64,000 nt of DNA from Gammaproteobacteria bacterium. Lineage in GTDB: Bacteria; Pseudomonadota; Gammaproteobacteria; SZUA-140. A program made the position numbers and the translations under genes. Positions 888 to 53,691 of this stretch are shown here, one piece after another. Positions within the stretch are counted from its first letter, which is position 1; every line of letters begins with the position of its first letter. The DNA lies in NCBI GenBank assembly GCA_034002745.1, contig JAVEZY010000006.1:12667-76666 (forward strand), in the 5' to 3' direction. The notes beneath the pieces are model-generated. The model made no database searches. It saw nothing but the letters and a program-made list of their open reading frames with translations, and was not told where the DNA came from.

Positions 888-1619
888 TCAGCTTATCCCC
901 ACCTGCCCTTCGATGGTGTTCTGCAGCCAGGATCGCACCATGCGCAGATGATCGTTCTCCTGTGACAGCGCGTGGCGGAACTGCTCGGCCATGCTGTCGT
1001 GGCCGAGCCGGTCGGCCAGCGAGGCGAGCATCTCCCAGGCGTCGTTGTCGACGAGTTCGACCATGTGAATTGCATGCAGACATTCGGTGAGGGTACTGCG
1101 CGGATCGCTCAGCAGCTGCATCACGCCGGTACTGGCGACGGCATCGGCATCGGCAGTGGGCGAGATGGCGGTAGGGTCGGCGCCGAGGGTTTTCATGCAC
1201 TCCATCAGCAGGCCGAAGTGCTCCAGCTCTTCATCATGGATGTGCAGGATCTCGTCCCTGGTGGGACCACCGGGCTGAGCGTCCGAAGCATCGTATTTCA
1301 CCAGCAGAGCTTCATAGAGACGCGTGCCGGTGCGCTCGAAGGCGAGCCGGTCGGCGATCAGATCGAGAAAGACCGCAGGCGATTTCCCCTTCAATTTCTG
1401 CATTCCGGACTTCATCTTTCCCTTCACCGAGGGCGGCGGCGGCATGGTGCCAAAAGGCTCCGCACCCCTGGAGTAGAGGCTGCGTATTGCCTCCATCGCC
1501 GTCAGGTCGAAGCCTGTCTCCACCGGCGACATCGTCGCGCCTTCCATCATTTCCTTGGCCAGTTCCGGCGACGCATCGGCTCCGGTGCGATTTCCACCTA
1601 CATCGAGCGGCGATTTCAT
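888..1619 (-). CDS. Ferritin-like domain protein
   Basis: Diiron-type motifs AFERTG..LYE, DEELEHF, VELVD, QENDHL. The start at 1619 overlaps the upstream stop (ATGA). Confidence 0.8.
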   Translation of the reverse strand: MKSPLDVGGNRTGADASPELAKEMMEGATMSPVETGFDLTAMEAIRSLYSRGAEPFGTMPPPPSVKGKMKSGMQKLKGKSPAVFLDLIADRLAFERTGTRLYEALLVKYDASDAQPGGPTRDEILHIHDEELEHFGLLMECMKTLGADPTAISPTADADAVASTGVMQLLSDPRSTLTECLHAIHMVELVDNDAWEMLASLADRLGHDSMAEQFRHALSQENDHLRMVRSWLQNTIEGQVGIS

Positions 1620-2797
1620 GAGCTCTTCCTCATCTGGACGACATTGGCTAGTTCGGTTCCGGGTTCCCAACGGTACCCCGACGCAACCGCCTCCGACGGC
1701 GACCCTTCGGAATTGAGCTGGTCGCGCACCGCCAGAGAGCGGCCATGCTCCTGGTCGAGCGGCACGATCTCCGTGCCATTGGCGCGCAAGTCGACTTCGT
1801 TCGCGAGCACTTCGCGCACGAACTCCCGGTGACTGTGAAAGCCGATCGGATCGGGCAGCGTCTCCGGCAACAGTTCCGCCGCCTCGCGGCCCTGATACTT
1901 CTCCAGCAGGCGCGCCACGTGATGCATCTGTCCGAGCTCATAATCCAGAAAGCGCTCCCATACCGCCTTGATGCGCGGATTGCCTTCCTGCTGCATGCAG
2001 CTCCAGTAGTTGTAGACTTCATTTGCCTCGTGGAGCAGCCACTTCTCCAGCACGGATTCCTCGGGGTCGATCAGCGATCCATACTGCGTGACATGCTGCT
2101 CCTCGATGGCCGCGATCTCCGCATAGAGTTGTCTCGCCACCGGGTCGGCATATATCGGCGCGATATTCATGTAGTAGTCACGCGTCTGGTGCTCGGCCGA
2201 CAGGATGGTCAGCGCATTGAGCTTGCTGATCGGACTTGCCGTCTCGCGCTCGTACGGGCGACGCAGATCATCGAGCGGATGACGATGCTCGACCGCGGTC
2301 GCCCGCCCGGGAGTGATGTCCGTATAGCTCTGCAGGATGTTGTTCGGATCCTTTCCTTCCAGCCGATCGAGCAACGCCGAGAATCGATACAGATGGTCGA
2401 AATCCTCGAGCATGCCGAAGCGGTAGACCTGCGCCAGATACGGATCCGGTTCATGCTGCGCGACGCTCGCGGTGACCTCGATGGCCACCTGCTCGTAGCC
2501 TATCGTCGTTTCGAGTGGCGTCTGATCGGCAGGATTCATCCAATTGACCATCACCTGCTGCATGTGATCGATGCGCCGCGTCATGGCCAACTGCTGACGC
2601 AGCTCACCATTCACCATGCTCGCGGCGCCATGACTGAACCGGATGGTCCCCGCCTCGATGCCGTTCATGAAGATGACCCGTACGCGGGTGAATGCATCGT
2701 CGTCGAGCTTGCTATATGGGTGCGGCGCCAGCTCGCGCCAGGTGAATACCTGTTTTTCCAGGGGAGTTCCCTTCTCGTGCAGAAGATCGAGAGCCAT
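1616..2797 (-). CDS. Uncharacterised protein with probable tandem ferritin-like four-helix bundles
   Basis: 393 aa. Repeated E…ExxH-like motifs (GYEQVA, LEDFDHLY, AEHQT, IEEQHVTQY, EANEVY, YELGQMH). Translationally coupled to the next ferritin-like gene. Confidence 0.7.
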   Translation of the reverse strand: MALDLLHEKGTPLEKQVFTWRELAPHPYSKLDDDAFTRVRVIFMNGIEAGTIRFSHGAASMVNGELRQQLAMTRRIDHMQQVMVNWMNPADQTPLETTIGYEQVAIEVTASVAQHEPDPYLAQVYRFGMLEDFDHLYRFSALLDRLEGKDPNNILQSYTDITPGRATAVEHRHPLDDLRRPYERETASPISKLNALTILSAEHQTRDYYMNIAPIYADPVARQLYAEIAAIEEQHVTQYGSLIDPEESVLEKWLLHEANEVYNYWSCMQQEGNPRIKAVWERFLDYELGQMHHVARLLEKYQGREAAELLPETLPDPIGFHSHREFVREVLANEVDLRANGTEIVPLDQEHGRSLAVRDQLNSEGSPSEAVASGYRWEPGTELANVVQMRKSS

Positions 2798-2970
2798 TGA
2801 TCATCTCCTAGGGCCGGGAGCGTCGGATGACGCTCTCCACGCCGATGCACGAAGCCGGCCATTCGGAAATGCCAGATAAAACAGGCGTGTCAACGAATCG
2901 AATGCGGGTGGAGAAACCAGCAAAGGGTCAGGTCACCAGCCGCTGCGGCACAGGGCCCACCGGCGGGTGT

Positions 2971-3423
2971 TCAGGCAGGTGGAGACGGACGGCTGGGCGA
3001 ATGATTGACCGAAAGCCAGTACTCGCCGAGCTCGCCGATGGTCTTGGCGAAGCAGGAGAAGGAAACCGGTTTGCTGACGAAACTGTTGGCGCCCGAACAG
3101 TAGCTGCGGGTAATGTCCTCATCCTCGCTGGATGAGCTGAAAACCACCACCGGAATCCGCCGTGTACGCTCGTCCGCGCGCAGGCGCCTGAGCACATCGA
3201 TGCCATTGAGCTTGGGGAGTTTGAGATCGAGGAGGATCAGATCGGGCTGCCGGCTTCCATCCCGGTCCCGCCAGACGCCTTCGCAGAACAGGTACTCGAG
3301 TGCTTCCTTGCCATCGCGAGCGACCTCGATCCGGTCTGCGATCTGAGCGCGGCGCAGTGCCCTCAGCGCGAGTTCCTCGTCCTCTTCATTGTCCTCGACC
3401 AACAGTATGAGCTTGTCCGGCAT
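2971..3423 (-). CDS. Single-domain response regulator (Rcp1-like receiver)
   Basis: From MPDKLILLVEDNEEDEEL: LLDLKLPKLNG (phospho-Asp), PVVVFSSS, ANSFVSKP. Confidence 0.9.
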   Translation of the reverse strand: MPDKLILLVEDNEEDEELALRALRRAQIADRIEVARDGKEALEYLFCEGVWRDRDGSRQPDLILLDLKLPKLNGIDVLRRLRADERTRRIPVVVFSSSSEDEDITRSYCSGANSFVSKPVSFSCFAKTIGELGEYWLSVNHSPSRPSPPA

Positions 3424-3436
3424 GGTGGGTCCTCCG

Positions 3437-5056
3437 TCAGACCGGCGGCAACTTCCGGCCGGCCTGTGGTTCATCGCCACTGCCCGGCATGCTGTCACCG
3501 TGTTCATGCTCCATGCCGCCATCGGTGCCGTCGTCGCCAGCGTTCGAGGCAGAGTCCGGTCGGAGCGTGAAATAGAACACTGCGCCGCGTCCCGGCGCCG
3601 CATTCGCCCAGACCCTTCCGCCGTGCCGGCGGATGACGCGCTGCACCGTGGCCAGCCCTATGCCAATCCCGGGGAACTCATTCTGGCCATGCAGGCGCTG
3701 AAACACGCCGAACAGCTTATCGGAGTATGCCATATCAAAGCCGACGCCGTTGTCCCTGACGAAATATACCGATCTTCCCTCCTCCTCGAGGTTCCCGACC
3801 TCAATGGTCGGCTTCTCCGTGTGAGCGGTAAACTTCCAGGCATTGCTCAACAGATTCACCATCACCACCCGGATCAGGTGCGGATCGCCTTTGGCGGTCA
3901 TGCCGCCCCAGATCACGACATGCACCTTGCGCTCGGGATCGCGCTGCTGCTGTTCGTTGATGATCTCGCCCGCCATCGCACTCAGATCCACCGTGTCGTA
4001 GCGCATCTGCGCGCGCGACAGCCGCGACAGGTTGAGCAGTTCCTCGATCAGCTGTCCCATCCGCCGGGTCGAAGTCCGGATCTTGTCCAGATAACGTCCG
4101 GCATCATCCGGAAGCTCCTCGCCGAGTTCCTCGGCAAGCGCCTCGCCATAGCCGTCTATCGACCTGAGCGGCGCCCGCAGATCGTGTGATACCGAGTATG
4201 CGAAAGCCTCGAGTTCGGCGTTCGCCTGTTCGAGCTCCCGCGTCCGCTTTCGCACCCTGCTGTCCAGTTCACGGTTGAGCCGCCATACTTCGGCCTCCAC
4301 GCGGCGACGTTCAGCGACCTCGTTCTGCAGATCGCGGTTGAATCGTTCCAGTTCTCCCGCGCGCGCCTCGATCTCGGCCAGCATGGCATTGAAGGAATCG
4401 GCGAGATCGCCGACCTCGTCATCGCTGAGCTTCTCCGCCCGCAGGGAATAGTCCCGGTTGCTGACGATCCGCCGAGCGGTGGTCGATATTCCCACGACGG
4501 GCTTGATCAGGAACCGCTGCAACCAGCCGCTCATCAATGTCGCCAGCACCAGCGCCGCAAGAATGATCAGCCCGATGACACCAGCTCCCTGAAGCAGTCG
4601 TTCGTTGATTGGATACGCGATCCGGGCATAGATCGTGCCGGCGATCTGATCCTCGAACAGAATGCGGTGAAAGGCGAACATGTTTCCACCCTCCATCCAC
4701 ACTCCTTCGTTCCCCGGAAAGCGGGGAAAGTCTCCCTCCAGTCCATGACGTACGTAGGTGGCAAAGATCTGACCGCGCGAATTGTAGATGGCAGCGGCTT
4801 CGAAGGAAGGTCGGATATCGAGCAAGGTGAGGTTCTCCGCCGCGACCTGGGGATCGCCGAACTGCAGGGCGGGTGCCGAGGCACGTCCGATCAGGGCGAT
4901 CTGCGTCTGTATGTCGCGAACGGCAACGCCATGATAATCGCGCATGTCTATGTAAAGCAGAGCGGAGCCGGCAAGCAGTAGTGCCACGGCCGTGGTCGAC
5001 AACATGACCATCAGCAGCTTGAGACGGAAGGATCTCATGATGCGTCGAAATGTCAT
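3437..5056 (-). CDS. Membrane sensor histidine kinase (CHASE8-like periplasmic domain, HAMP, HisKA, HATPase)
   Basis: Two TM segments around a YfiN-like sensor (APALQFGDPQVAAENL). HAMP DEVGDLADSFNAML, H-box SVSHDLRAPL, N-box NLLSNAWKF, G-boxes DNGVGF and GIGIGLA. Confidence 0.9.
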   Translation of the reverse strand: MTFRRIMRSFRLKLLMVMLSTTAVALLLAGSALLYIDMRDYHGVAVRDIQTQIALIGRASAPALQFGDPQVAAENLTLLDIRPSFEAAAIYNSRGQIFATYVRHGLEGDFPRFPGNEGVWMEGGNMFAFHRILFEDQIAGTIYARIAYPINERLLQGAGVIGLIILAALVLATLMSGWLQRFLIKPVVGISTTARRIVSNRDYSLRAEKLSDDEVGDLADSFNAMLAEIEARAGELERFNRDLQNEVAERRRVEAEVWRLNRELDSRVRKRTRELEQANAELEAFAYSVSHDLRAPLRSIDGYGEALAEELGEELPDDAGRYLDKIRTSTRRMGQLIEELLNLSRLSRAQMRYDTVDLSAMAGEIINEQQQRDPERKVHVVIWGGMTAKGDPHLIRVVMVNLLSNAWKFTAHTEKPTIEVGNLEEEGRSVYFVRDNGVGFDMAYSDKLFGVFQRLHGQNEFPGIGIGLATVQRVIRRHGGRVWANAAPGRGAVFYFTLRPDSASNAGDDGTDGGMEHEHGDSMPGSGDEPQAGRKLPPV

Positions 5057-5730
5057 CTGTCCGCCTCCTCGATGTGGCGGGCGACACTCAGCAGACGCGC
5101 ACTCACCCGCAGATCGCTCGCTTCCGCGAGCGGCAGCGAGACGTCGAAGCGGACCCGGTCCTGATCGAGCACGAAAGTGATGATGGCAGTGCCTGCGTAT
5201 ACGCTGTCGGTGATGGTCAGAACGGAGCGCGCGCGCACCGAACCGAGGAGAGCGGATGCCGCCTCCGGATCGACTGCTTCCGTCACGTACAGCATATCCA
5301 CATCGGCGACATCGTCGACGCTGCGCACGCGCTTCACGGACAGCGGGCGATTACGGATCGTGCGAGTACGTACGATTTCCATCAGCGGCCCGATCACATC
5401 TGCATCGGTGACACCGATGACGAGTGGATCGTCCGCGGCGATGAAGGTGCCCGGCGGCCAATCGACATACGCGCCGAAGTGATAGAGAAAGGCGGCCTTG
5501 ATCTCAGCCTCGAGACGACCTTCCGGTTGCGCCGCCACCTGCGTGACGACCGAGGATGCGATGAGCGGCGAGACAGCTGAGAAAATGAAAAAGAAGGAAA
5601 GTGCCAACAAGGCGGGGAAACGGACGCCGCGGACCCTGTCGCCGTCCTGGCGAACGAAGACAAAGCAATATCCGGATGCCTTGGTCTTCTCCGACACGTG
5701 CTCTCCCGGCTGTGCCAGGCCGCAGATCAC
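5053..5730 (-). CDS. YfiR-family (DUF4154) periplasmic protein; true start uncertain
   Basis: EIKAAFLYHFGAYVDWP, ITFVLDQDRVRFDVSL, LRVSARLLSVA are YfiR hallmarks. It has a hydrophobic signal region and its stop overlaps the kinase ATG. Confidence 0.88.
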   Translation of the reverse strand: MICGLAQPGEHVSEKTKASGYCFVFVRQDGDRVRGVRFPALLALSFFFIFSAVSPLIASSVVTQVAAQPEGRLEAEIKAAFLYHFGAYVDWPPGTFIAADDPLVIGVTDADVIGPLMEIVRTRTIRNRPLSVKRVRSVDDVADVDMLYVTEAVDPEAASALLGSVRARSVLTITDSVYAGTAIITFVLDQDRVRFDVSLPLAEASDLRVSARLLSVARHIEEADR

Positions 5731-5861
5731 GGATGCGAAATGCGGATGACGATCGCGCCGATGGGATGGGCGCGGGCCCGCTCTTTACACGATATACGGT
5801 GCGTGTGAGTATAGCCCATCTGTCCGATGGAACGGTATCACATGGAGCCGGTCCGATCGCA

Positions 5862-7787
5862 ATGCCCGTATCCATGAGCAATCGTCTGCGACGTGCGTGC
5901 GCGAAAGCGCGGCCTCGGCCTCTCGGTTTCGGCTTCTGCCTGCCCCTGCTCGTCGTCTGCACGGAAGCGCCGGCTCGCGTGGCCGACCTCGTCGATCTCA
6001 GCATCGAAGAGCTGACGCAGGTACCCATCACCTCGGTATCGCGGCGTCCCGAGCCACTGGCGACTGCAGCCTCGGCAATCCAGATCATCACCGGCGAGGA
6101 AGTGAGGCGTTCGGGCGCAAGCGTGCTGCCCGAGGCACTGCGCCTCGCCCCCAACCTGCAGGTGAAGCAGATCACCTCCAACGACTGGTCCGTCACATCG
6201 CGCGGCTTCATCAGCCTGAGAACCGAAGCCGGCACACTCTCCAACAAACTGCTGGTCATGATCGATGGGCAAGCCATCTATACGCCCGTATTCGGCGGCG
6301 TATATTGGGAATCCCACAACATACTGCTCGATGACATCGACCGCATCGAGGTGGTGAGCGGTCCGGGCGGAACGCTGTGGGGAGCTAATGCCGTCAACGG
6401 CGTGATCAACATCATCCGCCGCTCCGCATCGCACACGCAGGGCTGGTACGGCAACCTGACCACGGGCGCACTGCTGGATGATTATTCACTGCGCTATGGC
6501 GGCAGAATCGGTGATCGCGGTCATTTCCGCGTCTATGGTCAGCAACTGAAACGTTACGCGATTGTCGCCGATGGCAGCGATGAATGGCAGACTCATCAGG
6601 GTGGCTTCCGCGTCGATCTCGATCTTTCGTCGCGCGACAGGCTGACCGTGCAGGGCGACATGCAGTCGGGCGAGGAAGGGCGGGAAACAGAGTTCGGCAT
6701 CAACAGCCGCAACCTGATGGCGATCTGGGAGCACCAGCAGAGCGAGGATTCCCAGTGGCGGCTGGCCACATACGTCAACGGGCGATGGCGGGCGCTTTCC
6801 AGCGTGGATCTCAAGGAAGACGTTTTCGACATCGACCTGCAGCATCGCTTCCGCACCAGCGCGGCAACCAACATTGTCTGGGGCGCCAGCTATCGCTCGT
6901 ATGAGGACCAAACGACGCCGCGCTCGGAAGAGGTACGGTTCATTCCGGACAGCCGCCGCCTGCTTACCAGCAATGCCTTCGTGCAGGGAGAGATCATCGC
7001 GATTCCCGATCGCCTCATGCTGACGCTCGGCACCAAATTCTCCGACAGCGAGTACAGCGGCTTCGAGATTCAGCCGAGTGTGCGCCTGGCCTGGCGGGCG
7101 ACCGAGAGCGGCACCCTGTGGTCCGCGATTTCGCGCGCCGTGCGCACGCCAACCCGTCTCGATCGGGATTTCCTCACCGAAGGGCTGGCTGGCAATCCCG
7201 GATTCGACAGCGAGAAGGTCATCGCCTACGAGGCCGGCTACCGCTGGCAACCCTCACCCAGGGCGTCCCTGTCGATCGCCGCCTACTACAACCGCTACCA
7301 GGATCTGCGCAGCTTCAGCGCCAATTCCGATCCACCGCCGGCGCTCATCCTTGGCAACGATTTCGAGGTGGACAGCTGGGGGGCGGAGCTGTTCGGCATG
7401 TTCGCGATCACCGAGCGCTGGCGCCTGAGGGCCTTCTACTCCCATCTGGATGCCCATTTCGAAGCGACCAGCCCCGCCGCGGTGAGCGATCCGGTTTCAG
7501 CCGAGAACCGGGATTCCAGCTATGTGCTGGGGCTGCATTCGATGATGGACCTGGGTCGAGGTTTTCAGCTGGACATCTTCATGCGCCGGATCGGCGCCAC
7601 GGGAGCCAACGATATCCCTCCGGACCCCGGCGTCCCCGCGCACAACAATCTCGACGCCCGCCTGGCCTGGCAGAACAGGAACTGGGAGGTGGCCCTGATA
7701 GGCCAGAACCTGAACGGCGCGCAGATCGAAATCAACCCTGAGGCGATTCCGCGCTATGTCTTCCTGCGGACGCGGTTCTGGTATTAG
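5862..7787 (+). CDS. TonB-dependent outer-membrane receptor of the type usually linked to YfiR/CHASE8 genes
   Basis: DLSIEELTQVPITSVSRR N-terminus. Plug motifs NKLLVMIDG and DIDRIEVVSGPGGTLWGANAVNGVINII. C-terminal aromatic beta-strand RTRFWY. Confidence 0.92.
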   Translation: MPVSMSNRLRRACAKARPRPLGFGFCLPLLVVCTEAPARVADLVDLSIEELTQVPITSVSRRPEPLATAASAIQIITGEEVRRSGASVLPEALRLAPNLQVKQITSNDWSVTSRGFISLRTEAGTLSNKLLVMIDGQAIYTPVFGGVYWESHNILLDDIDRIEVVSGPGGTLWGANAVNGVINIIRRSASHTQGWYGNLTTGALLDDYSLRYGGRIGDRGHFRVYGQQLKRYAIVADGSDEWQTHQGGFRVDLDLSSRDRLTVQGDMQSGEEGRETEFGINSRNLMAIWEHQQSEDSQWRLATYVNGRWRALSSVDLKEDVFDIDLQHRFRTSAATNIVWGASYRSYEDQTTPRSEEVRFIPDSRRLLTSNAFVQGEIIAIPDRLMLTLGTKFSDSEYSGFEIQPSVRLAWRATESGTLWSAISRAVRTPTRLDRDFLTEGLAGNPGFDSEKVIAYEAGYRWQPSPRASLSIAAYYNRYQDLRSFSANSDPPPALILGNDFEVDSWGAELFGMFAITERWRLRAFYSHLDAHFEATSPAAVSDPVSAENRDSSYVLGLHSMMDLGRGFQLDIFMRRIGATGANDIPPDPGVPAHNNLDARLAWQNRNWEVALIGQNLNGAQIEINPEAIPRYVFLRTRFWY

Positions 7788-7803
7788 CGGTAAGCATGGA
7801 ACC

Positions 7804-7867
7804 GGAGACAGACGGGTTTCCGACGCACCGGCTGGCCTGACTCGCGGCGGCAAACGTGTCCGTCCCC
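7804..7867. repeat. Imperfect inverted repeat (GGAGACAGACGGGTTT / AAACGTGTCCGTCCCC) between convergent genes
   Basis: Arms 7804-7819 and 7852-7867 match at 12 of 16 positions. The GGGGAC-type core is related to the other REP-like motifs. Confidence 0.5.
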
Positions 7868-7878
7868 GATTCTCCGCC

Positions 7879-9135
7879 TCAGCCCGGCAGCCACACCCGC
7901 GAGTGTGACATGCACTCGCCGACCGGAACGGTTTCCAGGATCTCGTCGCGATCGCCGTCGATGATGACGATTGCGCCAGCCTCGCCATTGGAGGAATAAA
8001 GCCGCAGGCCCCGATCCGTCCTGGCGACGGCCAGCGAGCCCGAGGCCGCGCCCAGCCGCAGCTCCCGCCGCAGCACCAGCCGTGGCAATGTGGTGAGGTC
8101 GACGATCAGCAGCGCATCGGACTTGAGATTGGCCTGCTGCTCCGGGCTGCCCGAACTGCCGGTGGTCATGAACAGCCGGGTGCCATCGGGATCGAAGTAG
8201 TACTTGCTGACATAGATGTCCGGCAGCGTCAGGCGATCGGCCACCGTCATGGTCTCCAGATCGAGCACGGTGAGATGGGCCATGACATGGGCGGGGTCCG
8301 ACTTGCGGTCAGCGCCGCGGCCGATGATGTAGCGCCCGCCCGGCACCATGAACAGGTTGCTGTGGCCCTTGAACGGTATGCGGTCCTCGATGCGGCAGCT
8401 GCGGGGATCGATTACCGCGATATTGCCGTAGCCGTTGTTGAGGTTGTACAGCTTGCCGGTCAGCGGGGAGAACACCAGCCCGTGCGGGAAAGCGTTGTTG
8501 GGGATTCCGCCGCGTCCACCCTCTTCGCGCTCGGGCTCGGACAGATCGATGGTGTCCAGCAAGCGCAGGAAATCGTCGCCCTCGGCGGGATCGTTGCCGA
8601 GCACCGATATCGAGCCATCCTTGAGGTTGCTGATCCAGGCGCGGCGCGGCACCTCGGGGGCGCTCGCCGTGGGCCGGGAAAAGCAGGCCTGATGATGACC
8701 ACGGCCGACGCAGATGGTCTTCAGGAAGCGGGCGCGCACACTGTCCACGTCCTCGATCACGGTCACCGAAGAGCCGCCATCGCCGCAGTTGAGGCGATCG
8801 TTGCCGGTCTCCTTGTCGCCGTCGTTCATGAACCAGCGACGCCTGGATTCCGGATCCTCGTAGATGTGAGCGGGAAAGGCATCGGCCGGGAAACCTTCCT
8901 GGGCACGGATTTCCTTGCTCTCCGGATCCAGCAGGATGACTTTCCGCTCCGGCGCATCCAGCCCGATGAAGACCGGCCGGAGTTCGGGCGGAAGGCCAGT
9001 TTCGGGCAGTGGGGGAATCGGCTCGATCCGCGTTTCGCCACCCTGGCGGCGAACCATCGCCAGACTGCCGGTCCGGCGATCGCCGGAATAATACGCCACA
9101 ACAAAATCGCCAGTTTCGTCAGAACGTTGTGTCAT
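7879..9135 (-). CDS. YncE/YVTN-like beta-propeller protein, no obvious signal peptide
   Basis: Repeated blade-like segments (GSSVTVIE, ICVGRGHH, DGSISVLG, FPHGLVFSP, GNIAVIDP, LTVLDLET, GAIVIIDG). Confidence 0.65.
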   Translation of the reverse strand: MTQRSDETGDFVVAYYSGDRRTGSLAMVRRQGGETRIEPIPPLPETGLPPELRPVFIGLDAPERKVILLDPESKEIRAQEGFPADAFPAHIYEDPESRRRWFMNDGDKETGNDRLNCGDGGSSVTVIEDVDSVRARFLKTICVGRGHHQACFSRPTASAPEVPRRAWISNLKDGSISVLGNDPAEGDDFLRLLDTIDLSEPEREEGGRGGIPNNAFPHGLVFSPLTGKLYNLNNGYGNIAVIDPRSCRIEDRIPFKGHSNLFMVPGGRYIIGRGADRKSDPAHVMAHLTVLDLETMTVADRLTLPDIYVSKYYFDPDGTRLFMTTGSSGSPEQQANLKSDALLIVDLTTLPRLVLRRELRLGAASGSLAVARTDRGLRLYSSNGEAGAIVIIDGDRDEILETVPVGECMSHSRVWLPG

Positions 9136-9323
9136 ATCTTTTATACCTTGCCCGAAGTTATTCTGAGAGATGTACCGGGGAAATCCTCACCGCGGAACAG
9201 GCCCTGGTCTCGATGGGCGCAGAGTCCGGAGATCGACCCTTCTGCTGCCTGATGCGGCCCAGGCGACAGTTCACTTTCCGCATGAGAAGACAGATGTCTG
9301 ACCCAGCGAAATCAGCAACTTGC

Positions 9324-9539
9324 TTACCTTTGTTCAGACTCTTCCCGCGCGCGGCGGCGGGCATGTTCACGGCGCCCCATGAATACGCCGATCATCACCG
9401 GCAGGACGACCACCGCCACGATGGCGATGCTCACCAGGAAGGTGCCGGAGGCATCATCGAAGCGCGCCATGAAGATGATGAACAGGATGATCGCCGCGGT
9501 CGCGGCGGAGTAGCCTGCAAAACGAATGAGTTCTTTCAT
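9324..9539 (-). CDS. Small two-TM hypothetical membrane protein
   Basis: 71 aa with two hydrophobic helices and a charged tail. Co-oriented between sthA and the propeller gene. Confidence 0.65.
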   Translation of the reverse strand: MKELIRFAGYSAATAAIILFIIFMARFDDASGTFLVSIAIVAVVVLPVMIGVFMGRREHARRRAREESEQR

Positions 9540-9576
9540 GTCTGTTACCGGCCGCGTAGCAAGCGGTCATTGTACA

Positions 9577-10941
9577 TCAGGAAACCCGGTTGAGCCCGTT
9601 GAGCGCCGCCACCCGGTAGGCCTCGGCCATGGTCGGATAGTTGAAGGTGGTGTCCACGAAATACCTGAGGGTATTGCCGGCGCCGGGCTGCGACATCACC
9701 ACCTGCCCGATATGGATGATCTCCGCGGCCTGGTCGCCGAAGCAATGGATGCCGAGGATCTCCAGTGTCTCGCGATGAAACAGGATCTTCAGCATGCCGG
9801 TCGTTTGACCCGAGATCTGCGCCCGCGCCAGATGGCGGAACAGGGAATGCCCCACCTCGTAGGGAACGCATTCCGCCGTCAGTTCGCGCTCGGTCCGTCC
9901 GATCGAACTGATCTCGGGCAGGGTATAGATTCCCGTGGGCACGCTTCTGAGCAAGCCGCCGGCATCGCCGCCCTGCAACAGGTGGGTGGCGGCGTAGCGT
10001 CCCTGATCGTAGGCGGCGCTCGCCAGATTGGGAGAACCTGTGATATCCCCGACGGCGTAGATGTGCGCGCGGGAGGAACGGTAACAGGAATCCACCCGCA
10101 CCAGCCCCCGCGCATCGGTTTCGACGCCGATGGCAGTCAGCCCCAGATCATCCGTATTCCCGGCCCGCCCCTGCGCCCACAGCAGGTAGTCGGCCCGGAT
10201 CAGTTTCTGCGACTTGAGATGCAGCGTGACACACTGATCGTCGGCCTCCGCGCGTTCGTACTCCTCATCGTGGCGGATCAGAATCCCCTGTTCGCGAAAA
10301 TGGTAGGACAGCGCATCCACTATCTCGTCGTCGAGGAAGGAAAGCAGCTGCGGGCGGGTATTGATCAGGTTCACCTTGATGCCGAGGTTGCGGAAGATCG
10401 ACGCATACTCGCAGCCGACCACGCCGGCGCCGTAGATGGTGATGGAACGCGGACTGTCGGTCAGCCCCAGCACGGTGTCGCTGTCGAGAATCCGCGGATG
10501 GAAAAAATCGATGTCCGGCGGATGAAACGGGCGCGAGCCGGGCGCGATCACGAAATTGTCGGCATGGTAGCGCCGCAGCTGGCCGCTGCCCGAGACCTCG
10601 ACGATGTGGTCGTCGACAAAGCGGGCATGCCCGGTGATGACATCGACGCGGTTGCGGTGATAGAAGCCGGTACGCATGTTCACCTGACGATCGATCACCG
10701 CGCGAGCGCTCCGCAGCAATTCGTCGAAGCGGGCGAGATCCTGACGCCCGGTCTGCACGAGTTGCTGTACCGCCTGGCGCAGCGCCTTGCTCGGAATAGT
10801 GGAGGTATGGGTGCAGTTGCCGCCGACCCGCGGCTTCTCCTCGATCACGGCGACCCGCCGGCCCCCCTTGGCCGCCTTCATCGCCGCGCCCTCACCGCCC
10901 GGCCCGCTGCCGATCACGATGACTTCGTATTTCTCGAGCAT
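9577..10941 (-). CDS. sthA: Soluble pyridine nucleotide transhydrogenase
   Basis: [14 protein letters not shown] motif, [31 protein letters not shown]-terminal [20 protein letters not shown]. Confidence 0.95.
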
Positions 10942-11038
10942 GCCCCAATCCTAACCGCCCAGCCCGCTCCGGCGCAAAGAGTGTCTCCCGCGGAGCCGGT
11001 CCTCATCGGGCCCGGATCCATTCTGGTAAAGTGGTGCG

Positions 11039-12202
11039 ATGAGCGAGATACGACACAAACGTTTACTGCGGCTGCTTGCGCAACCGACGGCGCCATTTCG
11101 CGAGACGCACGTCACGGCGCATATCGCCGCGACATTCGAACGACGCGGCGTACCTTTCTTCGAGGACCCCGCCGGCAACCTGGTGGTCGGCGCGGGTTCA
11201 GCCGCCGCGTACCGTCGCCTGCTGCGCGCACGCGACGGAGAGCCGCTGCGCCTGTTCATCGCCCACATGGATCATCCCGGCTTCCACGGGGCACGCTGGC
11301 TCGCGCCCAATCGCCTGGCCGTGCGCTGGCACGGCGGCTCACCGGTGCGTCATCTGGCGGGTACGCGCATGCGACTGGTGACCGATGAAGGTATCGTCGG
11401 CAACGGCAGACTGCAGCGACCCCGCATACGCGAAGGCGGCTGGGCGATCGATACCGCCGAGATCAGACTGGACGTACCGCTCGATCCGCAGCCGCGGGCC
11501 ACGAGCATCTACGGCGGCTTCGACTTTCGCGCTCCCGTATGGGAGTCCCGCGGGCGCATCTACTGTCCAGCGGCGGACGACCTGATCGGCGTCCACGCCA
11601 TCGTCGAAACCGCGCTGACCCTGTGGCGGGGCGGCAGGGACTCCGCCGCTCCATTCCTCGGCCTGCTCACCCGCGCCGAGGAAGTCGGTTTCGTCGGCGC
11701 CGTGGCTCATCTGGAACTGGGATGGCTGCAGCAACGCCGGCGCTCCGTGCTGGCGATCAGCCTGGAAGCATCCCGGGGCCTGCCGGGAGCTGAAATCGGC
11801 AAGGGTCCGGTGGTCCGCCTCGGCGACCGGCGCACGGTGTTCGATCCCTCCATGCTCGAGGCATTGAGCCAGATCGCGCGGCGCAGCCTTCCGCAACGGC
11901 ATCAGCGCAGGGTGATGGATGGCGGCTCGTGCGAGGCGACCGCGATGACGGCCTGGGGCGTACCGGCGGCGGGCATTTCGGTGCCGCTCGGCAACTATCA
12001 CAATCAGGGGCTGGATGGCGGAGACGATTTCAGGGCATCCGGGGGGCCGGCGCCGGAGTTCGTCAGTCGCCACGATGTGGAAGCGCTGGTGAAACTGTGT
12101 GCGGCACTCGCGCGCCCCGGACCGTCGTGGTCCGAGCCGTGGGCCGAGCAGCGTGCCAGGCTGCGCAAGAACCTGGTCAGATCGGGAAAGCTGTTGTCCT
12201 GA
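11039..12202 (+). CDS. M20/M28/M42-clan zinc metallopeptidase-like hydrolase
   Basis: Metal-ligand pattern AHMDHPGF, AADDLIG, RAEEVG, SLEAS, GNYHN. Confidence 0.75.
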   Translation: MSEIRHKRLLRLLAQPTAPFRETHVTAHIAATFERRGVPFFEDPAGNLVVGAGSAAAYRRLLRARDGEPLRLFIAHMDHPGFHGARWLAPNRLAVRWHGGSPVRHLAGTRMRLVTDEGIVGNGRLQRPRIREGGWAIDTAEIRLDVPLDPQPRATSIYGGFDFRAPVWESRGRIYCPAADDLIGVHAIVETALTLWRGGRDSAAPFLGLLTRAEEVGFVGAVAHLELGWLQQRRRSVLAISLEASRGLPGAEIGKGPVVRLGDRRTVFDPSMLEALSQIARRSLPQRHQRRVMDGGSCEATAMTAWGVPAAGISVPLGNYHNQGLDGGDDFRASGGPAPEFVSRHDVEALVKLCAALARPGPSWSEPWAEQRARLRKNLVRSGKLLS

Positions 12203-12274
12203 CAGGCTGGTGATGAAGATGCCCGCGCAGGCCGGCCGGCCGCTACGGCAGGCTCCCGCGCAGGCTCTTCGCCG

Positions 12275-12481
12275 CTACTGCGCGGGAATGACGTTGGTTG
12301 CCTGTATCCCCTTCGCCGTATCCTCGGTCTCGAAGGTCACGCTCTGACCTTCCATCAGCGTCTTGAACCCGTCGAGCCTGATGGCCGAATAATGGACGAA
12401 TACGTCCTTCCCCCCGTCATCCGGAGTAATGAAACCGTACCCCTTCGACTGATTGAACCACTTCACCTTGCCTGTCGACAT
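12275..12481 (-). CDS. Cold-shock protein (CspA family)
   Basis: [18 protein letters not shown] (RNP1) and VFVHYSAI (RNP2); 68 aa. Confidence 0.95.
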
Positions 12482-12763
12482 AGAACCACCCCTCACTTGA
12501 AAAACGTACGAGCGATGCCGGTACCGTCTTCCACATCCCAGTGGCTTCCACCCTCCAGATCGGCGCAAGCGAGCAGCGAACGCCGCGTTCCAGTCTAGCA
12601 GCGTCCGGAACACCCGCCAACAGGTTCGTCACACGCCGCCGGCGCCGGGTTTTTCTCCCTGCGGCACCCGGCCAACCCTGAGCGCAAGCGCCCCACGAGA
12701 CTCTCATCCGCGACCGGCGCGGACCACTGTTAGCATCGCTGAACGACCTGTATCATTCGCGCC

Positions 12764-13519
12764 ATGGCAAGCCCCCTGGCGATCGACATACTTCCCCAGC
12801 CCGACGAAACCACCTGCGGACCCACCTGTCTGCACGCGGTCTATCGCTATTTCCAGGATGAAATGCCGCTCGACCAGGTGATCGATGGCATCCAGCGCCT
12901 CCACCATGGCGGCACGCTGGCAGTGTTCCTCGCTGCGCATGCGCTGGAGCGCGGTTATCGGGCAACGATCTACACCTACAATCTGGAGATGTTCGATCCG
13001 ACGTGGTTCGACGCGGATGGCAGCGTACCGGATATCGTCGACAGACTGCAGCGACAGGTGGAAGCCAAGAATGCGACCGAGTTCGCCGTGGCAACCGAAG
13101 GCTATGCCCGCTTCGCCGCCGCGGGCGGACGCCTGCGCTTCGAAGACCTGACCACCGGACTCATCCGCCGCCATCTCAAGCGCGGCATTCCGCTGCTCAC
13201 CGGTCTGAGCGCAACCTATCTCTATCACTGCGCGCGCGAACACGGTCCGCACTGCGAATACGACGACATTCGAGGCTATCCCAGCGGCCACTTCGTCCTG
13301 CTCGCCGGCTACGATTCGGAGACCCGTTCGGTGCTGGTCATCGATCCGCTGCACTCGAATCCGATGGCGCCCGGACACCACTACGAGATCAGCATCGATC
13401 GCGTCATCGGCGCGATCCTGCTGGGCGTTCTCACCCACGATGCCAATCTGCTGGTGATCGAGCCGGCACGCACCAGGCACTCCGCACACAGCCATGTCGA
13501 TATTCATCGTCGTCAATAA
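12764..13519 (+). CDS. Peptidase C39-like (papain-fold) protein
   Basis: QPDETTCGPTCL (Gln and catalytic Cys) and GHFVLLAGYD (His, Asp), VIDP. Overlaps the downstream gene by 26 bp. Confidence 0.8.
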   Translation: MASPLAIDILPQPDETTCGPTCLHAVYRYFQDEMPLDQVIDGIQRLHHGGTLAVFLAAHALERGYRATIYTYNLEMFDPTWFDADGSVPDIVDRLQRQVEAKNATEFAVATEGYARFAAAGGRLRFEDLTTGLIRRHLKRGIPLLTGLSATYLYHCAREHGPHCEYDDIRGYPSGHFVLLAGYDSETRSVLVIDPLHSNPMAPGHHYEISIDRVIGAILLGVLTHDANLLVIEPARTRHSAHSHVDIHRRQ

Positions 13520-14963
13520 CCCCGAAGACTGGCCGCTCCAGATACACGGCGCCGAAGTGGTCGCCGCCAAAACCTATCTCTCCGACCCGCGGTTCATCGA
13601 TCTGCGTGGAGTGAAGGTCTTCAATCTGTCGCGCTCATACCGCTACCAGAGCCTGGGCTATTACGTGTCCCTGCTCGCCGAGGCGCGCGGGCACAAACCC
13701 CTGCCGAGCGTGAACACCATCCAGGACATGAAGTCGCAGACCATCACCCGCTTCGTGTCCGATGATCTGTTCGAACTGATCCAGAAGAACCTGGCACCGA
13801 TCCGGTCCGAGGAATTCGTCCTCAGCATCTACTTCGGACGCAATCTGGCGCGGCGCTACGATCGCCTTTCCCGCAGCCTGTTCAATCTGTTTCCGGCGCC
13901 GCTGTTGCGCGCCCGCTTCATCCGCACCCGATCCTGGCAATTGCAGAGCATCGGGCCGATCGCCGCCAGCGAAATTCCGGATGATCACCAGGCCTTCGTC
14001 ATCGAGGCGGCAAGCGAATATTTCGCCGGCAAGCGTTCGCGACGCCGTGAACCGCAGGCCGAACGCTACGATCTCGCCATTCTCCACAACCCCGAGGAAG
14101 CACAGCCGCCCTCGGACGCCGCCGCGCTGCGCCGCTTCGTCCGCGCGGGGCGCCAGCTCGGCTTCGCGGTCGAAATGATCACCCGGAACGACTATGGCCG
14201 TATCGCGGAGTTCGACGCGCTGCTCATCCGCGAGACCACCGGCGTCAACCATCACACTTACCGCTTCGCGCGCCGTGCCAAGGCCGAAGGCCTGGTGGTG
14301 ATCGATGATCCCGGATCGATCCTGAGGTGCACCAACAAGGTCTACCTCGCCGAACTGATGCAGCGGCACCGCATCCCGGCACCGCGCACCACCATCGTGA
14401 ACCGCGGTAACATGAGCGCGATGGCGGCCGGCTTCGCCCTGCCCTGTATTCTCAAGCAGCCCGACAGCGCCTTCTCGCAGGGCGTGATCAAAGTCGAGAC
14501 CCGCGCCGAGTTCCTGGCCCAGGCCGCGCGACTACTGGAAAAATCGGAACTGATCATTGCCCAGGAATTCATGCCCACCGCCTTCGACTGGCGCATCGGC
14601 ATCTTCGATCGCAAGGCGATCTTCGCCTGCAGGTACTACATGGTGGGTGGTCACTGGCAGATCATGCAGCATGGCCCCGAGGGTCGCCCGCGCGAGGGCC
14701 GTGCCGAAACCGTGCCGCTGGCGCAGGTTCCGGCGCACGTCGTATCGACCGCACTCAAGGCGGCGAACCTCATCGGCAAGGGTCTTTACGGCGTAGACAT
14801 CAAGGAGATCGATGGCCGCGTCTACGTGATGGAAGTGAACGACAACCCCAACATCGATCATGGCATCGAGGACGCCGAGGGCGGAAACGAACTCTACATG
14901 ACGATCATGCGCGGCATGCTGGCCCGCGTCGAGGAGCGAAAGGGTGAAAGACGGCCACGCTGA
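13494..14963 (+). CDS. RimK-family ATP-grasp ligase with N-terminal RLAN domain
   Basis: The N-terminus NLSRSYRYQSLGYYVSLLAEARGH is RLAN-like. ATP-grasp motifs NKVYL, ILKQPDSAFSQGV, QEFMP, YGVDIK, EVNDNP. Confidence 0.9.
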   Translation: MSIFIVVNNPEDWPLQIHGAEVVAAKTYLSDPRFIDLRGVKVFNLSRSYRYQSLGYYVSLLAEARGHKPLPSVNTIQDMKSQTITRFVSDDLFELIQKNLAPIRSEEFVLSIYFGRNLARRYDRLSRSLFNLFPAPLLRARFIRTRSWQLQSIGPIAASEIPDDHQAFVIEAASEYFAGKRSRRREPQAERYDLAILHNPEEAQPPSDAAALRRFVRAGRQLGFAVEMITRNDYGRIAEFDALLIRETTGVNHHTYRFARRAKAEGLVVIDDPGSILRCTNKVYLAELMQRHRIPAPRTTIVNRGNMSAMAAGFALPCILKQPDSAFSQGVIKVETRAEFLAQAARLLEKSELIIAQEFMPTAFDWRIGIFDRKAIFACRYYMVGGHWQIMQHGPEGRPREGRAETVPLAQVPAHVVSTALKAANLIGKGLYGVDIKEIDGRVYVMEVNDNPNIDHGIEDAEGGNELYMTIMRGMLARVEERKGERRPR

Positions 14964-51280: not shown

Positions 51281-51305
51281 CCTAATGACAATCATTATCA
51301 TTGCG
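51281..51305. promoter_or_regulatory. Fur box in the divergent piuC / receptor promoter
   Basis: CCTAATGACAATCATTATC matches GATAATGATAATCATTATC at 16 of 19; an overlapping second site is shifted by 6 nt. Confidence 0.85.
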
Positions 51306-51384: not shown

Positions 51385-53691
51385 ATGAAAACTCTAGGCG
51401 CCGAAAGAAACAATCGAATCAAACCCTTGCTCGCCGCGATACTGTGCGCCAGTGGCGGCGGCCTCGCGGGAACGGAGGTCCAGGCACAGGAGGCGGGTGA
51501 TGTCGTGACGCTGCGTTCGCTCTCCGTTCAGGCGGCGCCTGATCAGCCGGGGCAGGTCGCCTCGCCCAAGTTCACCGCCCCCCTCCTCGACACGCCGCAG
51601 ACGGTACAGGTAATCCCTTCCGAGCTGTTCACGCAACAGGGCGCACAGAGCCTGACCGATGTGCTGCGCAACACTCCCGGCATCAGCTTCAGCGCCGGTG
51701 AGAACGGGTTTTCCACCAACACCAACAACTTCACTTTGCGCGGCTTCGATACCAGCGGCAACATATTTGTCGACGGTACACGCGACTCCGGCAACTATCG
51801 CCGCGATGTCTTCAATGTCGAACAGGTCGAAGTGGTGAAGGGTCCAGCAGCGGACAATGGACGCGGCGGTGCTGGCGGTTACATCAACATCGAAACCAAG
51901 ACGCCGCAGCTGCGCGACAGCCAGACGGCATCCATCGGCTACGGTTTCGACGAGTACGATTCCGAGCATCGCCTGCGCACCGCGCTCGACGTCAACCGAA
52001 TCGTCGGCGACGGCACCGCGATCCGGATGAACCTGCTGATGCAGGAAGGCGGCGTCGCCGGTCGGCAGATGGCCGAGCACAACAGCCTGGGCGTTGCTCC
52101 GTCACTCGCCTTCGGCCTGGACGGCCCGACGCGCCTGGTCCTCGGCTATCAGTATCTGGAGCAGGAAGATCTGCCCGACTGGGGCATTCCGGCAGCATTC
52201 ATCGAGGACATGGTCCGCTTCGATCGCACCGTGGACGAAGACGATCGCGACCGCTTCTATGGCCTGGCCTCGGATCATGACGATACCGTCTCCCATTCCG
52301 CCATGGCCCGCATCGAGCATGACTTCTCCCGCGATTTCAGCCTGAGCAACCAGACGCGCTGGGTCAGGACCGATCGCGATGCCCGTTATACGGTCGCGAC
52401 GGCGTACGATGCGGCGACGCGCGAGGTCGCCACGCAGGCACAGTTCTACGAACGCGAGAATACGTCGATCTCCAACCTCACCAACCTGACGTTCCGTTTC
52501 GACACCGGCGCCCTGCGGCACACCGCGGCGGCTGGCCTGGAGATTTCGCGTGAGACCTCGGATGCGCTGCGCTTCGGCACCGCCAACCAGCCGGCGACGG
52601 ATATCGCCAACCCGGATCCGTTCCGTGCCGGCGTCCCGGTCGTCGCAGCCACCGAGATCAGCGAGGTGACCATCGACACCATCGCGCTCTACGCCTACGA
52701 CACCATCGCGCTGAGCGAACGCTGGGAGCTGACCGGCGGTCTGCGCGGCGAGCGTTACGAAGTCGACATCGAAAGCCGCAGCGCGAGCGGCAACCCGCAA
52801 GGACCTGATCAGTACGATGTCAGCGATACCACCCTGAGCGGAAAGCTCGGGCTGGTGTTCAAGCCGGTCGAACATGGCAGCGTCTACGGCGCGGTAAGCA
52901 TGTCCACCCTGCCCCCGGGCTCCTATCTGTCCAATCCCGACATCTCGCGCACCGGCAATAACGCGTTCCCCGGCCTGGTCGGACAGAACAACGAAGAGGC
53001 CAGGACGCAGAAGGCCATCAACTACGAACTCGGTGTGAAGTGGAACTTGTTCGATGACCGGCTCAACGCTTCAGCGGCTGTCTTCCACACCGAACGTCGC
53101 AACGTCGCCATTACCGGCGCAGAAGAACCCGGCGGCGATGTCACTCTGCAGGGATACGGCAAGCAGATCGTACAGGGGATCGAGCTGAGCCTGATCGGCG
53201 AGATCCGCGAAGGCTGGACCGCCTGGGGCGGCATCCTGTTCCTCGACAGCGAGCGCAAGCACAGCGCGCTGCTCGACGAACGGCGCCGCAACGCCAACCC
53301 GGCCGATTTCAGCGGCGATTTCGGCATCTTCAACTCGACCAACGGGGATGAACTGGCATTCACGCCCGACATCACCGCCAGCGTGTGGACCAGTTATGCC
53401 TTCCGTTCGGGGTTGACCCTGGGTGGCGGCATACAGCACGTGGCCGATTCCTGGGCCGGTCGACCGGACGATGCCGACCGCATCATCCCCAACGGCATGT
53501 TCGGCGAGTTGCCCGGTTACACCGTGCTGAACCTCATGGCCTCGTACGCCGTCAGTGAGAACCTGCTGGTGCGGCTCAACATCGACAACGTCACGGACGA
53601 ACTCTATGCCGTCTCGACCAACTGGGCAGCGCAGCGCGTCTTCACGGGCGCGCCGCGTTCATACCTGCTGACAGCGGACCTGCGCTTCTGA
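51385..53691 (+). CDS. TonB-dependent siderophore receptor (Fiu/PiuA-like)
   Basis: SPKFTAPLLDTPQTVQVIP, LRNTPGISF, TLRGF, VEQVEVVKGP, RLNIDNVTDELY, C-terminal DLRF; Fur box upstream. Confidence 0.93.
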   Translation: MKTLGAERNNRIKPLLAAILCASGGGLAGTEVQAQEAGDVVTLRSLSVQAAPDQPGQVASPKFTAPLLDTPQTVQVIPSELFTQQGAQSLTDVLRNTPGISFSAGENGFSTNTNNFTLRGFDTSGNIFVDGTRDSGNYRRDVFNVEQVEVVKGPAADNGRGGAGGYINIETKTPQLRDSQTASIGYGFDEYDSEHRLRTALDVNRIVGDGTAIRMNLLMQEGGVAGRQMAEHNSLGVAPSLAFGLDGPTRLVLGYQYLEQEDLPDWGIPAAFIEDMVRFDRTVDEDDRDRFYGLASDHDDTVSHSAMARIEHDFSRDFSLSNQTRWVRTDRDARYTVATAYDAATREVATQAQFYERENTSISNLTNLTFRFDTGALRHTAAAGLEISRETSDALRFGTANQPATDIANPDPFRAGVPVVAATEISEVTIDTIALYAYDTIALSERWELTGGLRGERYEVDIESRSASGNPQGPDQYDVSDTTLSGKLGLVFKPVEHGSVYGAVSMSTLPPGSYLSNPDISRTGNNAFPGLVGQNNEEARTQKAINYELGVKWNLFDDRLNASAAVFHTERRNVAITGAEEPGGDVTLQGYGKQIVQGIELSLIGEIREGWTAWGGILFLDSERKHSALLDERRRNANPADFSGDFGIFNSTNGDELAFTPDITASVWTSYAFRSGLTLGGGIQHVADSWAGRPDDADRIIPNGMFGELPGYTVLNLMASYAVSENLLVRLNIDNVTDELYAVSTNWAAQRVFTGAPRSYLLTADLRF

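Follow-up and report, generated by a model that had tools for sequence, protein, structure and literature searches.

The 64-kb stretch of DNA analysed here (contig JAVEZY010000006.1, referred to below as the window) carries, at positions 2971–7787, a gene for a TonB-dependent receptor and, divergently oriented to it, genes for a YfiR-like periplasmic protein, a sensor histidine kinase with a periplasmic CHASE8 domain and a small response regulator. The families of these four proteins and their tight, often translationally coupled linkage are found across many phyla, and the explanation that we favour as a whole, giving it somewhat better than even chances, is that the four genes encode a single module that would pass a signal from the envelope to the cytoplasm. 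Release 20 of NCBIfam holds dedicated models for three of these families, NF053590 ('TOL_0244 family TonB-dependent receptor'), NF053591 ('TOL_0243 family YfiR-like periplasmic protein') and NF053592 ('sensor histidine kinase, YfiR-like protein-associated'); the association has therefore already been noticed by the NCBI curators, who named it after locus tags of Thalassolituus oleivorans. Naming a family by locus tags usually signals that it lacks a characterized member, and full-text literature searches returned no paper on the trio and no functional study, only proteomic data on TOL_0244 and TOL_0243.

A preliminary description of this sequence had named the four genes, the start–stop overlap between two of them and the divergence of the receptor gene from the others, and all of these stand: each gene was found in its place with matching domains (by comparison with Pfam, NCBIfam and PDB), and the overlap can be read directly from the sequence. 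The receptor gene (5874–7787; gene call of 637 amino acids, P0121) occupies the plus strand and the operon (2971–5697) the minus strand, with a divergent intergenic (promoter) region of 176 bp at 5698–5873 between the receptor and yfiR-like genes; no match to the sigma-70 consensus was found within 2700–8000. The yfiR-like gene (5053–5697; 214-residue gene call P0001, with an alternative GTG start at 5634) ends in an ATGA at 5053–5056, where its stop codon overlaps the start of the kinase gene (3437–5056), and the receptor, YfiR-like and kinase genes are mutually adjacent. The receiver gene (2971–3423) encodes a 150-residue single-domain response regulator of the Rcp1/RcpA type, begins 13 nt past the kinase stop codon and has its own GGAGGA ribosome-binding site. 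Hidden Markov model (HMM) searches against Pfam confirmed the proposed DUF4154 domain of the YfiR-like protein (1.1e-29) and the CHASE8 domain of the kinase (1.3e-10), which also carries HAMP, HisKA and HATPase_c. The order of elements in the kinase is a first transmembrane segment, the periplasmic CHASE8 domain, a second transmembrane segment, HAMP, a coiled coil, HisKA (with H291) and HATPase_c. Its predicted periplasmic sensor domain spans approximately residues 37–158 (4583–4948, minus strand), delimited by hydrophobic flanks in the translation, with the Pfam CHASE8 match at residues 47–105.

Against the NCBIfam models, the YfiR-like protein scored 147.3 bits over model positions 1–150 of 150 (cut-off 125) and the kinase 248 bits over positions 1–222 of 223, a model that covers the N-terminal sensor module (cut-off 194). 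The receptor reached 602.7 bits over 581 of 604 model positions, i.e. 43 bits short of the cut-off of 645, with the next-best family at 72 bits. The receptor is 38% identical to TOL_0244 of T. oleivorans and the YfiR-like protein 24% identical to TOL_0243. With two of the three proteins above the cut-offs, the third matching its family best by far and the genes adjacent, we assign the locus on these scores to the NCBIfam-defined trio, as a member with a receptor marginally under the cut-off.

The conservation of this arrangement was analysed in two scans of a genome collection, one seeded with an alignment of YfiR-like proteins and a reciprocal one seeded with the receptor, each covering the best 80 of ∼600 or more matches; start codons in these related loci are approximate. 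In the YfiR-seeded scan, 65 of the 73 assessable loci have a receptor of the same family next to the yfiR-like gene, placed upstream in the same orientation in 61, divergently as in the window in 2 and downstream in 2, and a homologous sensor directly follows the yfiR-like gene in 77 of 79. The reciprocal scan found a yfiR-like gene following the receptor in 66 of 75 assessable loci, so that the linkage recurs in ∼88–89% of them from either seed. The receptor-seeded loci come from Verrucomicrobiota, Bacteroidota, Rhodothermales, Gemmatimonadota, Acidobacteriota, Nitrospirota, Desulfobacterota, Deferribacteres, Planctomycetota and Alpha-, Beta- and Gammaproteobacteria, amounting to more than 10 phyla overall, and the gene arrangement is far beyond chance. 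The sensors are equally uniform: all 75 full-length sensors from the YfiR-seeded scan combine CHASE8 with HisKA and HATPase_c (HAMP is present in 73, a receiver makes 33 of them hybrid kinases and GGDEF is absent from all), and all 57 scanned partners of the receptor-seeded loci have CHASE8, 56 being kinases and one a GGDEF-EAL protein. When both scans are pooled, CHASE8 is present in 132 of 132 scanned sensors, of which 131 are histidine kinases. The survey thus extends to a broad range of genomes the linkage of receptor, YfiR and CHASE8 that the preliminary description had noted at this one locus. The receptor, which that description allowed might turn out to group with unlinked nutrient receptors and not to be conserved together with YfiR, belongs to a dedicated family, as all 64 linked receptors match NF053590 and the linkage holds in both directions.

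In 114 of 122 complete trios the receptor gene lies upstream on the same strand. The median distance between the YfiR-like and kinase reading frames is −4 nt, and a median of 17 nt separates the receptor stop codon from the yfiR-like gene. The divergent orientation by which the window departs from the usual trio is found in only 3 of the 122, the window sharing it with its closest relative, L001, and with L023. Pairwise distances among the receptor, the YfiR-like protein and the sensor module of the kinase are correlated with r of 0.77–0.84, compared with 0.48–0.57 for the catalytic core of the kinase; the envelope-facing parts have therefore diversified as a unit while the transmitter was swapped, and shared ancestry accounts for part of this correlation. 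In some loci (the set L091, L064, L068, L118, L133 and L156), receptor paralogues stand two or three in tandem before a single yfiR-like gene; receptor and YfiR-like protein are encoded as two pairs in L156, and in L133 a second receptor gene follows that of the kinase. Such multi-receptor loci suggest a diversification of inputs onto one kinase.

Among the nearest known relatives of the module are the YfiBNR and HmsCDE systems of Pseudomonas aeruginosa, Escherichia coli and Yersinia, in which a gene for a DUF4154 protein of the YfiR fold likewise lies directly upstream of a CHASE8–HAMP inner-membrane sensor, the same locus encodes a third, outer-membrane component and the partner-binding surface is conserved. 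The YfiR-like protein of the window has a signal peptide and no lipobox; its family profile matched the PDB entry 4zhu of YfiR over the full length (E = 5.7e-9), and its AlphaFold2 model (predicted local distance difference test score, pLDDT, of 87.8) found the YfiR crystal structures as best matches, with a Foldseek probability of 1.0 and template-modelling (TM) scores of 0.69–0.77 (target-normalized). The next-best structural match was a single-lobe 'substrate-binding protein' of Rhodothermus marinus (5z6v, 6k1x, 8wgl) at a TM score of ∼0.5; 5z6v had no sequence match to a Rhodothermales YfiR-like protein and was rejected as a relative by sequence, being a relative in fold only. The fold of the YfiR-like protein is that of half a periplasmic binding protein. 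Kinases governed by a binding-protein-like partner are familiar from LuxP–LuxQ and TorT–TorS.

In YfiR, one conserved surface, composed of the C-terminal strand and helices and the N-terminal helix, serves both YfiN and YfiB, and the binding of YfiB involves strand pairing and the insertion of a hydrophobic residue (PMC4655355). The conserved surface of the clade represented in the window consists of an N-terminal helix motif, KAAFLYxFxxYVxWP, and a C-terminal RFDVS...LxISARLLSVA, and the invariant positions of the TOL_0243 clade, when aligned with the mapped surface (PMC4655355), fall within the partner-binding segments of YfiR. The periplasmic domain of YfiN, the target through which YfiR represses it, is now classed as CHASE8 (PMC8085984), which gives the proposed pairing of the YfiR-like protein and CHASE8 a sound basis in homology; together with the conserved partner surface, this makes it likely that the YfiR-like protein binds the kinase and that the CHASE8 domain is the docking site. 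By analogy with YfiR and YfiN, the soluble YfiR-like protein would bind CHASE8 and hold the kinase in one signalling state, and we regard control of the kinase in this manner as quite probable.

Beyond this middle step, the module departs from YfiBNR in most of the features that define that system. Its outer-membrane partner is a TonB-dependent receptor, whereas that of YfiBNR is an OmpA/Pal-like lipoprotein; its sensor shares CHASE8 and HAMP with YfiN but ends in HisKA and HATPase_c in place of GGDEF; and the gene order is receptor–R–sensor as opposed to R–N–B. The YfiR-like protein scored 23.4 bits against the canonical YfiR model NF053586, below its cut-off of 85, and at none of the four positions of the YfiR cysteine pairs (Cys71–Cys110 and Cys145–Cys152) is the cysteine conserved, whether in 31 clade members or in the protein of the window. 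No yfiB gene was found among the window neighbours of the module, and no extra family recurs in the 158 loci of the two scans. From these comparisons the module appears to be like YfiBNR in its middle step only.

The receptor would supply the signal, and we consider it fairly probable that it is the input of the module at all. In Pfam searches the protein consists of Plug (4.7e-15) and barrel (2e-24) only, with no STN domain. A signal peptide is followed by a DLSxEEL segment with a TonB-box-like strand, the plug and a 22-strand barrel; the AlphaFold2 model (pLDDT 84.9) shows a compact 22-strand barrel with Cir and BtuB as the best Foldseek matches (TM 0.76–0.89). A periplasm-exposed receptor N-terminus as a candidate signalling element recalls the FecA–FecR–FecI and FpvA transducers, but here there is no STN domain, anti-sigma factor or extracytoplasmic function (ECF) sigma factor, and the module has instead a soluble periplasmic protein and a two-component kinase. 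The earlier statement that no FecR or ECF sigma factor is involved agrees with our finding that neither gene is present among the neighbours conserved with the closest relative and that neither recurs in the related loci.

A receptor gene beside that of a kinase with a periplasmic sensor is also found in PfeA–PfeS/PfeR, PirA–PirS/PirR and the Bacteroides SusC/hybrid kinase systems. In the PfeS/PfeR type, however, a DNA-binding regulator of the OmpR type induces the receptor gene and there is no YfiR-like intermediary, whereas the regulator here is a bare 150-residue receiver (REC-GGDEF-EAL in relatives, REC denoting a receiver domain). The PfeA–PfeS/PfeR and SusC–hybrid kinase systems operate by import followed by periplasmic sensing, and to our knowledge this is the mode of every known receptor linked to a two-component system. 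In the version of the receptor step that we favour, tentatively and at rather less than even chances, the receptor would likewise admit a ligand to the periplasm in a TonB-dependent manner, where the YfiR-like protein, CHASE8 or both would sense it, altering the interaction of the YfiR-like protein with the kinase. Clustering of the neighbouring reading frames of the 158 loci found nothing recurrent besides the small receiver and GGDEF-EAL genes, and in particular no TonB/ExbBD and no inner-membrane transporter; with no such transporter conserved beside the module, the import would serve sensing and not nutrition.

The conserved mature N-terminus of the receptor (DLVDLSIEELTQVPITSVSR; 5985–6044, plus strand) bears on a different version of this step, the one put forward in the preliminary description. 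Surface binding of a ligand would release this segment into the periplasm, where it would capture the YfiR-like protein as activated YfiB captures YfiR, freeing CHASE8 and switching the kinase, with no need to transport the ligand; we hold this sequestration of the YfiR-like protein to be possible but doubtful. The mature receptor starts ∼12 residues ahead of the TonB-box-like strand, and its N-terminus is predicted to comprise a short helix and that strand. Among 64 linked receptors, the N-terminal motif has an information content of 3.2 bits per column, compared with 2.5 for the barrel strands, 2.1 for the extracellular loops and 1.4 for the periplasmic turns. The motif is conserved to the same degree as the plug and is the sole strongly conserved periplasm-exposed element outside it; the periplasmic turns, as the least conserved part of the protein, were rejected as a docking site. 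The motif is absent from the Fur-linked receptor at 51385 and presumably from Cir and BtuB.

Sequestration would also agree with the fact that the one surface with which YfiR binds both YfiN and YfiB (PMC4655355) is the most conserved part of the present clade, with the dedication of the receptor family to the module (64 of 64 linked receptors in NF053590, 66 of 75 linked in the reciprocal scan) and with the absence of any conserved transporter that could take up an imported ligand. In BtuB, FecA and FhuA, the ligand is known to induce unfolding of the TonB-box region. Yet the receptor has no STN-type signalling domain, TonB would compete for the same segment, and YfiR-like and receptor columns are not enriched among the top covarying pairs of 123 paired trios (0.8–1.3 times expectation; mutual information with average product correction). 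The motif may, moreover, be a general variant of the TonB box, as it is found in at least one more distant receptor: a protein with a family HMM score of 169, encoded directly upstream of a complete trio (L139, 2584–4596), has the same N-terminal motif LTDLSIEELLNVEVYSASK. The motif therefore appears to reach beyond the TOL_0244 family, and the view that it is unique to this family was rejected. Ligand import and YfiB-like sequestration are both compatible with the data.

Several points weigh against the import-and-sensing module as we have drawn it. Its mechanism is inferred; the YfiR-like protein is a single lobe, unlike the two-lobe binding proteins; a pure import model offers no obvious role for the conserved DLSxEEL extension ahead of the TonB box; and the receiver has no output domain. 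YfiR-like and kinase-sensor columns are enriched 4–8 fold among the top inter-protein pairs of the 123 trios, but this covariation was rejected as evidence of contact, as the columns of the cytoplasmic HAMP domain are enriched like the periplasmic ones and the signal is phylogenetic. Finally, the linkage is incomplete: 8 of 73 YfiR-like/kinase pairs (∼11%) lack a receptor beside them, and of 75 receptors of the family, 9 (∼12%) lie among unrelated genes.

These unlinked cases would be expected if the receptor were an ordinary nutrient transporter that shares only its regulation or location with a YfiR-like/kinase pair sensing the state of the envelope or of redox independently, as canonical YfiR does. 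In the window the receptor gene runs opposite to the operon and has a promoter region to itself. In the proteome of T. oleivorans MIL-1, the abundance of TOL_0244 on solid n-C28 was sevenfold that on Tween 80 (PMC6304351), and the protein was read as an alkane uptake receptor, with no mention of the adjacent YfiR-like and kinase genes (PMC6304351); TOL_0243 was detected on n-C28 only, a difference that was not significant (PMC6304351, supplementary table). OmpS of Alcanivorax dieselolei, with which TOL_0244 was compared in that study, was rejected as a characterized member of the family; it probably belongs to a different system, as its neighbours encode a PepSY protein and an OmpR-type regulator. 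Nevertheless, linkage of ∼88–89% both ways across more than 10 phyla with reading frames that usually overlap or abut, a single dedicated receptor family, the lack of any conserved downstream uptake or catabolic genes, the existence of in-frame fusions of receiver and receptor (see below) and the absence of the four cysteines behind the redox sensitivity of YfiR make an independent transporter improbable.

Regulation by iron was considered for the receptor and rejected as well, its intergenic region being without a Fur box: the best match there to the 19-bp consensus is 10/19, which is the background level, whereas the best match of the whole window, 16/19, lies at 51281–51299, ∼100 nt 5′ of the ATG of the other receptor at 51385. 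The contrast between the two receptors drawn in the preliminary description is thereby upheld. This second receptor gene (51385–53691, plus strand) is of the siderophore type and Fur-linked.

At the cytoplasmic end of the proposed module, the kinase would phosphorylate the Rcp1-type receiver. The H, N and G-box catalytic residues of the kinase are invariant across 75 homologues, and the receiver has a Response_reg domain (3.1e-19) and no other domain in Pfam. Its best matches among solved structures (E = 1e-20 to 1e-37) are single-domain receivers, among them the unnamed 5brj and 5ic5, RcpA (1k68), RcpB (1k66) and Rcp1 (1i3c), with E values of 2.9e-25 for RcpA and 9.5e-21 for Rcp1. Rcp1, RcpA and RcpB are associated with phytochromes, whereas the receiver of the window adjoins a CHASE8 kinase and not a (bacterio)phytochrome, and Pfam found no PHY or GAF chromophore module in this kinase. 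Of 158 related loci, 53 have a receiver of the same type.

In some Bacteroidota an Rcp1-like receiver, 33% identical to that of the window, is fused in frame to the N-terminus of a TOL_0244-family receptor, as in a Ferruginibacter metagenome-assembled genome (L161, 7001–9289) and in the proteins P0188, P0194, P0202, P0206, P0216 and P0239. The order in the fusion is receiver, signal-peptide-like hydrophobic segment, LSVEEL/TonB-box motif, plug and barrel, and the operon continues with genes for a DUF4154 protein and a CHASE8 kinase. A domain of cytoplasmic type ahead of an internal signal peptide makes for a puzzling topology, and the fusion protein may be cleaved. These fusions provide an independent tie of the receiver to the receptor.

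Many relatives of the locus would have a further phosphorylation target. A GGDEF-EAL gene lies co-directionally downstream of the kinase or the small receiver in 29 of 80 related loci, and all eight such genes that were scanned with Pfam encode response regulators of the form REC-(PAS/GAF)-GGDEF-EAL. Where the kinase is not a hybrid, the operon commonly goes on with a GGDEF-EAL gene and a small receiver; in hybrid-kinase loci the downstream genes are unrelated. The kinase of such relatives would probably also phosphorylate the REC-PAS-GGDEF-EAL enzyme, a step for which PdeK/PdeR of Xanthomonas oryzae, where a histidine kinase activates a REC-(PAS)-GGDEF-EAL regulator and controls the turnover of cyclic dimeric GMP (c-di-GMP), is a precedent with the same architecture (PMC6637768). 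The window and L001 have the small receiver only, and no part of the 64 kb encodes a GGDEF or EAL domain. The earlier claim that the output is phosphotransfer instead of c-di-GMP thus stands for this locus with its lone receiver and fails for the family, given the 29 of 80 loci with a downstream GGDEF-EAL gene. Judging by gene content, phosphotransfer would be the immediate output of the kinase everywhere and would frequently feed c-di-GMP enzymes at the family level, where c-di-GMP turnover is probably the usual output.

The lack of a DNA-binding domain in the response regulator would also allow a post-translational output, and the direction of the pathway could in principle be reversed, with the YfiR-like protein acting on the receptor (for example by masking the TonB box and so gating uptake), the kinase reporting or controlling its state and the receptor being the output. 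This arrangement would fit the strong three-way linkage and the conservation of the receptor N-terminus equally well. It has no precedent, however, a cytoplasmic receiver cannot reach an outer-membrane protein, and the REC-GGDEF-EAL partners in relatives indicate a cytoplasmic second-messenger output, so that we consider a reversed pathway very improbable.

Around the module, positions 888–13613 of the window are collinear, at 80% nucleotide identity, with contig CAZOOF010000005.1 of L001, the metagenome-assembled genome of an uncultured Chromatiales bacterium, and from this collinearity the window probably comes from a gammaproteobacterium related to L001. A gap of ∼170 nt separates the receiver gene from two genes further downstream on the minus strand. 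The first (1616–2797) encodes a 393-residue protein with no Pfam or NCBIfam match and with E..H motifs suggestive of a di-iron protein, and the second (888–1670) a 260-residue ferritin-like protein. Both products are ∼93% identical to their counterparts in L001 and absent from all other related loci; being common only to this closest relative, the two genes were rejected as parts of the module. On the other side, the flanking genes at 7879–9135 and 9577–10941 (both minus strand) are unrelated to the module; the former encodes a 418-residue hypothetical protein with faint matches to beta-propeller repeats and the latter a soluble pyridine nucleotide transhydrogenase (NF003585, 661 bits). A further histidine-kinase core, 29% identical to the CHASE8 kinase, is encoded near 59.6–60.2 kb (59573–60226).

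The module is present in hundreds of species from more than 10 phyla. Its association has been catalogued in NCBIfam, and it is very widespread and experimentally tractable in cultured members, among them T. oleivorans MIL-1 (TOL_0242–0244) and strains of Cellvibrio, Chitinimonas lacunae, Ramlibacter, Sedimenticola and Marinobacterium that the scans matched. YfiBNR, the textbook case of signalling through a periplasmic repressor, has been studied only with a lipoprotein as input and a diguanylate cyclase as output, and the present survey adds a sister arrangement in which the outer-membrane partner is a dedicated TonB-dependent receptor and the sensor a histidine kinase. There is some chance, though not a large one, that the module represents a third, previously undescribed mode of TonB-dependent trans-envelope signalling, in which a receptor without an STN domain would report ligand occupancy by capturing a soluble YfiR-type shuttle on its released N-terminus, thereby switching a CHASE8 kinase and, in many lineages, c-di-GMP turnover. 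If so, this mode would stand alongside STN/anti-sigma signalling and import with direct sensing. The induction of TOL_0244 on solid n-C28, the only experimental hint, points to attached growth on a hydrophobic substrate as one condition that may be relevant. Solving the module would define what a whole receptor family senses, test signalling by receptors that lack STN domains and provide a function for the thousands of proteins whose annotation goes no further than 'YfiR family protein' or 'iron complex outermembrane receptor', and it would explain how an external cue is coupled to c-di-GMP in many environmental bacteria.

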